The position numbers were made by a program, and so were the translations under genes. A stretch of 22,898 bases of DNA from a virus, in UHGV virus genome UHGV-1634937. One strand, given 5' to 3'. Below the pieces are notes generated by a model. It was not told where the DNA came from. It ran no database searches and saw only the letters and a list, made by a program, of their open reading frames with translations. Below are positions 21,546 to 22,898 of the stretch, in pieces. Numbering within the stretch: position 1 is the first letter of the stretch; every line of letters begins with the position of its first letter.

Positions 21546-22898
21546 ATTGCTATAACGTCATGAGCAACACCTCGAGTGTCCCCCTTACAAGACACAGAAC
21601 GTCTGGCAAAAAGAGGTTCCACTCTGAAGCCACTGTCCTGATAAAGTTCTCTGATGTTTGGCGCGCCACTGTTAGTAATGAGAACCTTTGCACCTCGGCG
21701 ATGAGCATCCGTCAACAGAGACACCAGGCGTTTTTGCTCTTCAAACTTAAAGTCATGACCGGAATAGTTCGTGAATCCCTCTGTATTTGGGAGCGGTTCA
21801 TACGGCGGATCGCAAAAGATGACATCTCCTTCTCCGGCAGCTTCAATCACCGCAGCAAAATCACCACATACAAACTCAGAACGCCCTTCCGCACCAAGGA
21901 AGGCTTCCATCTCCTGCAATGGGAAATACGGAGTTTTATACTTCCCATAACCGACATTGAACTCACCGGCTTGGTTGTAACGCGTCAATCCGTTAAAACA
22001 ATGTCGGTTCAGGAACAAAAACGCCGCTGCGCGATGTAAATCATCATAGACTTGTTTGTTAAACGCATTCCGTACTGCCAGGTATCCTTCCTGCGTGTTG
22101 TAGTCCTGGAAGAAACGATGTGCCAGAGTGATAAGTGAATGCGCCTCGCGTTGCAGAGTCTTGTAAAAGTTAATCAGGTCAGCATTCACATCATTTAGCA
22201 GATTTTCCTGGTATCCGGCATTCATGAAGACAGCTCCGCCACCAACGAAAGGTTCAATCAGGCGCTTCCCTTCTGGCAAATAGCGAAAGATTTGTTCCAG
22301 AACACCAAATTTTCCACCAGCCCATTTGAATATGGACCGTTCGAATTCTGCCGCTGGTTTAACTTTTCGCTCTTTTGTTTCACTTCCTTCTTTCTGCCGA
22401 CATGCAGCCTTGGTAATCCGCTCGCCAATCCAGCGCATTACTGGTATCGCCATACTATTGCCGATCGCTTTGTAACGAGGTCCGTCAGCTGCAAGCATGG
22501 CGGCCTCTTCTTCACTTAAATCAGGATCGTGATTGCGAAGGTATATAAGTTCATCTGAAGTAACTTTCTTACGCTTTCCCGTTGGAATCAACGTATGTCC
22601 ATCAGGAAAACCTTGCAGCCTTTCACATTCGACAGGAGTCAGACGGCGAACGCTCATCATATGAGGTAAGTAACCATTCTCACCTAATTCGCCTTTTTCA
22701 ATACTTTCCTGCCCCCAAAAAGATAACGCAACGGCGTCAGCTGTTGCGCGGGAATCAAGAGTAAAACTTATCTCTTTTTGCCACCCTTTACCCTGCGGTC
22801 CAGCATCATCTTTTCGCCCAATTTGTGCATGTTGTAGCGAATACGCAACAGCTGACGCCGTTGCGTTATCTTTTTGGGGGCAGGAAAGTATTGAAAAA
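21536..22898 (-). CDS. dmt: DNA methyltransferase: C5-cytosine MTase C-terminal motifs fused in frame to a Dam-family N6-adenine MTase domain; 5' end outside the window
   Basis: Dam motifs FKWAGGK and DPPY with overall similarity to E. coli Dam; upstream in the same frame, with no stop, are m5C motifs IX/X (RRLTPVECERLQGFPD ... YKAIGNSMAIPV); frame stays open to 22898. Symbol is the P1 name, from memory. Confidence 0.7.
   Translation of the reverse strand, partial: FSILSCPQKDNATASAVAYSLQHAQIGRKDDAGPQGKGWQKEISFTLDSRATADAVALSFWGQESIEKGELGENGYLPHMMSVRRLTPVECERLQGFPDGHTLIPTGKRKKVTSDELIYLRNHDPDLSEEEAAMLAADGPRYKAIGNSMAIPVMRWIGERITKAACRQKEGSETKERKVKPAAEFERSIFKWAGGKFGVLEQIFRYLPEGKRLIEPFVGGGAVFMNAGYQENLLNDVNADLINFYKTLQREAHSLITLAHRFFQDYNTQEGYLAVRNAFNKQVYDDLHRAAAFLFLNRHCFNGLTRYNQAGEFNVGYGKYKTPYFPLQEMEAFLGAEGRSEFVCGDFAAVIEAAGEGDVIFCDPPYEPLPNTEGFTNYSGHDFKFEEQKRLVSLLTDAHRRGAKVLITNSGAPNIRELYQDSGFRVEPLFARRSVSCKGDTRGVAHDVIAILL
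22694..22748. repeat. left arm of a perfect 55-bp inverted repeat
   Basis: Exact reverse complement of 22844-22898. Confidence 0.9.
22844..22898. repeat. right arm of a perfect 55-bp inverted repeat (reaches the window edge)
   Basis: Exact reverse complement of 22694-22748; 95-bp spacer between arms. Confidence 0.9.

Follow-up and report, generated by a model that had tools for sequence, protein, structure and literature searches.

A perfect 55-bp inverted repeat at the end of a P1-like phage-plasmid sequence probably stems from a fold-back chimera on an 11-bp native repeat

The question that this locus raises is why a perfect inverted repeat should lie inside the reading frame of a DNA methyltransferase and stop at the very last base of the DNA that carries it. 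In the window, by which we mean the whole 22,898-nt stretch of viral DNA analyzed here, positions 22694 to 22748 (the left arm, TTTTTCAATACTTTCCTGCCCCCAAAAAGATAACGCAACGGCGTCAGCTGTTGCG) are the exact reverse complement of positions 22844 to 22898 over 55 of 55 nt, with a 95-nt spacer between the arms, and the right arm finishes on the final base, 22898. A direct reading of the sequence, repeat scans and a script all agree on this arrangement, which had been described in a first-pass annotation of the same DNA, and the CGCAAC...GTTGCG sub-palindrome noted there inside the arm is likewise present (22727 to 22732 and 22743 to 22748). The pairing does not extend inward, as the script found a mismatch between 22749 (C) and 22843 (A), and the 55-bp pair is the only 100%-complementary inverted repeat of at least 20 nt that the repeat scan detected in the 22.9-kb window. 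A 55-nt match is far beyond chance and cannot be a coincidence. Three explanations had been offered for it, namely, a fold-back or assembly artifact at a contig end, a recent inverted duplication, and a hairpin-forming or invertible control site; the comparisons presented here favor the first and speak against the other two.

The gene that carries the repeat

Sequence comparison identifies the window as part of a P1-like (Punavirus) phage-plasmid. Many Escherichia coli plasmids are colinear with it at 98 to 99% identity, and it shares with P1-like plasmids a gene content that includes dnaB, tail and baseplate genes, a gene encoding an SPFH-domain protein, tRNAs, and dmt, with rdgC adjoining dmt. 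The dmt region is 94 to 96% identical to those of P1, P7, and SJ46, and the dmt fragment itself shows 94 to 100% DNA identity to annotated dmt or Dam-family genes of P1, P7, SJ46, and many E. coli plasmids. A Pfam search of the fragment in the window recovered the C-terminal part of a C5-MTase domain (PF00145) and, after it, a complete D12/Dam domain (PF02086), and in a full-length relative of 807 amino acids both domains are complete. A C5-MTase fused to a D12-class N6-adenine MTase in a P1-like context is what identifies P1-type Dmt, and this combination is present here. The hosting gene is thus dmt, the gene for this bifunctional DNA methyltransferase, with the C5 domain N-terminal and the Dam-type domain C-terminal; the first-pass annotation, which had recognized a P1-like dmt with C5-MTase motifs, is borne out by the two Pfam domains and by the colinear P1-like plasmids. 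The Dmt proteins of P1 and SJ46 have the same PF00145-PF02086 architecture at 94 to 100% DNA identity, and the gene in the window departs from them only by the usual mosaicism among alleles; the gene family as such does not carry the inverted repeat.

The repeat occupies the variable region that immediately precedes the RRLTPVECERLQGFP motif, where it had been placed before. The minus-strand frame is open from 22897 to the stop at 21536 and does contain both arms, as previously stated, but genuine dmt coding sequence accounts for only 22694 to 22854 of the repeat region. The remaining open frame, over 22855 to 22897 (FSILSCPQKDNATAS), is the plus-strand reading of the left arm and not Dmt; at the position of this tail the genuine Dmt protein reads ...NSANSNQNAGCPP-AVAYS.... 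The coordinates of these features, together with the tRNA genes of the window, are collected in Table 1.

Table 1. Coordinates of the dmt segment, the components of the inverted repeat and the tRNA genes in the window
Feature	Position	Strand	Description
Genuine 3' portion of dmt	21536-22854	-	C-terminal part of C5-MTase and whole Dam/D12 domain; stop codon 21536-21538
Left arm of the 55-bp repeat	22694-22748	-	Native dmt coding sequence; identical in closed plasmids L002 and L003; putative template copied backwards
Native 11-bp repeat, left half (CAGCTGTTGCG)	22738-22748		Present in L002, L003 and L005
Spacer, 95 nt	22749-22843	-	Native dmt coding sequence; one orientation in all relatives
Native 11-bp repeat, right half (CGCAACAGCTG)	22844-22854		Last genuine bases; microhomology at the putative fold-back junction
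Non-native tail, 44 nt, putative fold-back	22855-22898		Exact reverse complement of 22694-22737
tRNA-Met(CAT)	18631-18706	-	
tRNA-Thr(TGT)	20707-20782	-	
tRNA-Asn(GTT)	20785-20860	-	

The last 44 nt are not native

Window positions 22400 to 22898 served as the query in searches of 72,556 plasmids and of every complete E. coli genome in RefSeq. Over 22400 to 22854, the window is 99.8 to 100% identical to 11 closed plasmids of E. coli (RefSeq complete genomes, 10 of them also in PLSDB), and ~35 further high-coverage records match the same span at roughly 94 to 97%. Every one of these matches ends at query position 455, which is window position 22854, and the match to SJ46 ends at the same base. 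Past this point the closed plasmids and the more distant alleles alike run on as GTGGGCATCCCGCG... (GTGGGCATCC...). The 44 nt that follow 22854 in the relatives (GTGGGCATCCCGCGTTTTGATTGC..., as in NZ_CP069679.1; in full, GTGGGCATCCCGCGTTTTGATTGCTATTAGCAGAGTTACCAGCT) are identical in L001, L002, L003, and L005 by alignment and by script, the records with this identical continuation being pLH10-b-1-B, pMUB-MIN10-2, a Salmonella Agona plasmid, and SJ46, while the IncY E. coli plasmid L004 carries a slightly diverged form of it. The window reads ACGCCGTTGCGTTATC... instead, which is exactly the reverse complement of 22694 to 22737, and in the closed plasmids the last 55 nt of the window match only the opposite strand at the left-arm locus.

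Judged from these alignments, native DNA carries an inverted repeat of only 11 bp (22738 to 22748 with 22844 to 22854), and the junction of the tail lies exactly on this short reverse-complementary microhomology. Divergence of independent assemblies from the right arm after about 22843 had been proposed as the sign of an artifact; such divergence is what we found, and its position, 22854 instead of 22843, reflects the native short repeat, which makes up the first 11 nt of the right arm. The sequence past the junction is supported by none of the independent assemblies compared. A junction-specific 34-mer had zero matches in viral_contigs, genome_contigs, and metagenome_contigs, the chimeric junction was found in none of the 6 collections searched, and an exact look-up of the truncated Dmt product including the additional residues returned no record. 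Given the 34-mer without matches, the junction does not recur as a structural variant and cannot be traced to a contig.

A probable fold-back artifact and its alternatives

We conclude, with a probability of about 0.9, that the last 44 nt (22855 to 22898) are a fold-back, or strand-switch, chimera and thus a technical artifact rather than part of the phage-plasmid genome. The proposed sequence of events would begin with a single plus strand ending at 22854, which would fold back so that its 3' end pairs with 22738 to 22748; alternatively, a polymerase could switch template at the same point. Extension would then copy 22737, 22736, and so on as their reverse complement, possibly during end repair, PCR, or whole-genome amplification. 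Structure prediction is compatible with the first step: the 11-bp stem formed by 22844 to 22854 with 22738 to 22748 closes both the minimum-energy and the centroid structures of the single-stranded DNA, and the 3' end of a folded plus strand that stops at 22854 is positioned there as a primer on its template, extension of which gives exactly the observed tail.

The length of the arm may reflect the assembler. Chimeric reads would give the de Bruijn graph a short "hairpin" edge that joins the true path to its own reverse complement, and an assembler taking this edge would end its walk once a k-mer falls entirely within the reverse-complement path, leaving at the contig end an arm of k nt, here 55 (11 native plus 44 copied). 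In k-mer terms, the walk along the chimera meets the reverse-complement path at 22843 + k, so that arm length equals k; among common k values only k = 55 yields 22898, the end of the window, and the tail of 44 nt equals k - 11. The largest default k of SPAdes and metaSPAdes for short reads is 55. From this exact fit we infer that the end of the window is the end of a contig and that k = 55 was used, and we likewise infer the existence of chimeric reads, the library step, and the assembler; the non-native tail, the junction on an 11-bp microhomology, and the arithmetic that fits k = 55 are direct observations. At its left end the window runs into mosaic sequence common to lambdoid prophages, a typical break point for short-read contigs, which fits the window being a whole contig.

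Artifacts of this class are documented. SPAdes graphs can contain erroneous "double-strand hairpin" edges that link an edge to its reverse complement (PMC6736328). These edges in SPAdes and rnaSPAdes involve the same join of an edge to its own reverse complement and the same palindromic contig end as proposed here, where the palindrome lies at the end of the sequence with an arm equal to a standard k (55), although the published cases concern RNA-seq graphs and ours a DNA contig. Strand-split reads and artifactual chimeric reads also form during end repair, through annealing between short reverse-complementary regions and fill-in by T4 polymerase (PMC8458033, PMC6344851), and more than 85% of the chimeras produced by multiple displacement amplification (MDA) are inverted sequences with intervening deletions, primed on 2 to 21 nt of complementarity (PMC1855051). 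The tail described here shares with these library and MDA chimeras (PMC1855051, PMC6344851, PMC8458033) the inverted junction, the short intervening segment, and priming from a 3' end. Its 11-nt complementarity falls within the 2- to 21-nt range of the MDA chimeras, and the event would have been intramolecular and close, with the 3' end at 22854 priming 106 nt upstream.

One point sits less comfortably with a fold-back artifact, which is that in a well-covered isolate the true continuation should normally outcompete a chimeric edge. The true path must therefore have been lost or thinned for some other reason, perhaps because coverage was low locally, because strains with different dmt alleles were mixed, or because the input DNA had been amplified. 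No repeat that would explain a break at 22854 was present at the junction in a repeat scan and a self-BLAST of closed relatives, and the closed relatives compared differ only in that some alleles have 1,020 nt inserted ~875 nt past the junction. A join by the SPAdes gap closer, which may act on overlaps of at least 10 nt, was also considered, but it is at odds with a join to an internal position.

The alternative that survives best is a genuine inverted duplication in the sampled population, in which replication would have switched template at the 11-bp repeat to yield a palindromic, head-to-head molecule that truncates dmt. Microhomology junctions are also a signature of rearrangements mediated by short inverted repeats in vivo, and the junction here falls exactly on an 11-bp microhomology able to pair; moreover, a single assembly cannot separate strand switching in vivo from that in vitro, and a rearrangement private to the sample would look identical in it. 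Against this, neither the closed relatives nor the three contig collections contain the junction, so that the recent inverted duplication suggested by the first-pass annotation recurs in no other record, and the arm is exactly 55 nt long, which is a constant of assemblers and not a length set by biology. Such a duplication would also remove the catalytic, N-terminal half of the C5-MTase along with all that lies past it, and it therefore could not be the main form of the replicon. We regard an in vivo origin as improbable, and a slightly smaller chance still attaches to the specific case in which part of the population carries a palindromic, dmt-truncated molecule of which the assembler caught only the first 55 nt.

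A different possibility is that the native 11-bp repeat is a functional hairpin in dmt, acting as a regulatory structure in mRNA or single-stranded DNA that the artifact merely exposes. The place of the stem in the predicted minimum-energy and centroid structures speaks for such a role, as does the abundance of comparable repeats, since the whole window contains 9 loci (14 seed matches) with perfect inverted repeats of at least 11 nt and a spacer of at most 200 nt, where a first-order Markov model predicts ~1.3 seed matches per window. The same expectation of about one such repeat by chance nevertheless weakens the argument for any single one, and the fold of 22730 to 22854 as single-stranded DNA surpasses shuffled sequences only marginally (z = -1.9, with 10 of 200 shuffles folding as well). 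A 95-nt loop makes for a weak hairpin, and each half of the stem consists of ordinary codons (...PAVAYS... and ...RATADAVA...). The left half reads CAGCTGTAGCG in SJ46 and in the 94.9% allele L004, with one central mismatch (10/11) owing to an uncompensated T-to-A change that breaks the stem. We set a conserved functional hairpin aside on the weak z-score and this mismatch and consider it very unlikely; the presence of one more 11-bp repeat within coding DNA is unremarkable and consistent with chance. Most of the 9 loci are intergenic or operator-like, and several resemble operators or terminators.

A site-specific switch, in which the 95-nt spacer would flip between the repeats and phase-vary the specificity or expression of Dmt, fares worse still. 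P1-like phages do possess an invertase system, Cin/cix, elsewhere in the genome, and were the spacer to flip between the 11-bp arms of native DNA, the reading frame would stay open but 32 residues in the variable region that precedes motif IX would be scrambled. The 55-bp arms, however, occur in no independent genome; the native repeat that flanks the spacer measures only 11 bp and is reduced to 10/11 in SJ46 and L004; and all of the high-coverage records listed show the spacer in one orientation and as a single colinear piece. The inverted-spacer junction had zero matches in viral_contigs and genome_contigs, and in the two closed relatives inspected for their flanks the neighbors of dmt are rdgC and hypothetical genes, none of them a recombinase. 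The likeness to the Cin/cix C-segment and to phase-variable methyltransferases is superficial, consisting of a segment between inverted repeats in or near a gene; unlike the C-segment, this locus has no long native repeat, second orientation, or adjacent recombinase that we could find and is represented by one sequence only. The hairpin-forming or invertible site considered by the first-pass annotation is thus contradicted in its invertible form; nothing suggests that flipping happens, and we assign such a switch next to no probability.

A hairpin telomere of the N15 type, at which reads passing round a covalently closed end likewise give contigs ending in an inverted repeat, is ruled out by the 95-nt spacer inside a coding gene, where such telomeres have a palindrome with practically no spacer together with a protelomerase, a tel site, and a linear replicon, and by the relatives, every closed one examined being circular with dmt intact.

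With the fold-back artifact as the preferred reading, positions 22855 to 22898 should be trimmed before annotation or deposition, as the tail adds 15 false residues to the N-terminus of the truncated Dmt and gives rise to a spurious "perfect 55-bp inverted repeat." For genome scans, the warning sign is a perfect inverted repeat whose outer arm lies at a contig end, whose inner end is a short native inverted repeat, and whose arm length equals a common k (e.g., 21, 31, 33, 55, 77, 99, or 127), and repeats of this kind should be presumed to be hairpin-edge artifacts until reads show otherwise. The value of the locus is one of quality control only, as a clean worked example of an arm length equal to k at a contig end; the biology of P1-like dmt gains nothing new from it.

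Mosaicism of dmt and other features of the window

The dmt gene is mosaic over 22648 to 22854. P1, P7, and most P1-like plasmids of E. coli align only to ~22648 to 22654, just upstream of the C5-MTase motif IX region, while alleles of the SJ46 type are colinear to 22854 and beyond. This pattern suggests that P1-like elements have exchanged alleles of the N-terminal and variable (target-recognition) part of their C5-MTase. Some otherwise near-identical plasmids (L002, NZ_CP100532.1; L005, NZ_CP071390.1) have a dmt coding sequence of 3447 nt in place of 2424 nt, and a BLAST comparison of L002 with L003 places the additional 1,020 nt of the longer gene in L002 at positions 4330 to 5349, in the N-terminal part.

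The left end of the window is mosaic as well (positions 1 to 548), with the closest P1-like plasmids beginning to match at about 325 to 548. The first 86 to 700 nt also match, at 94%, DUF4014/hypothetical-gene regions in records labeled E. coli O157:H7 EDL933, and the matching region is an ead/Ea22-type lambdoid accessory region. Prophage sequence shared in this way probably explains the contig break on the left side.

Three further repeats were recorded. A perfect 13-nt inverted pair, ATTGCTCTAATAA...TTATTAGAGCAAT, lies at 7422 to 7434 and 7475 to 7487, and a palindromic element at 21513 to 21550, which contains AAATTTATTAGAGCAAT, overlaps the dmt stop codon; we take both to resemble the operator consensus of the P1 C1 repressor. 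The records of P1 and P7 have C1 binding sites and promoters annotated under the match to the dmt region. The third is a 23-nt inverted repeat (20187 to 20209 and 20264 to 20286; 91% complementary, with a 14-nt perfect core and a 54-nt spacer) that sits between the SPFH gene and the tRNA pair. The tRNA genes themselves (Table 1) are a known feature of P1-like phages.
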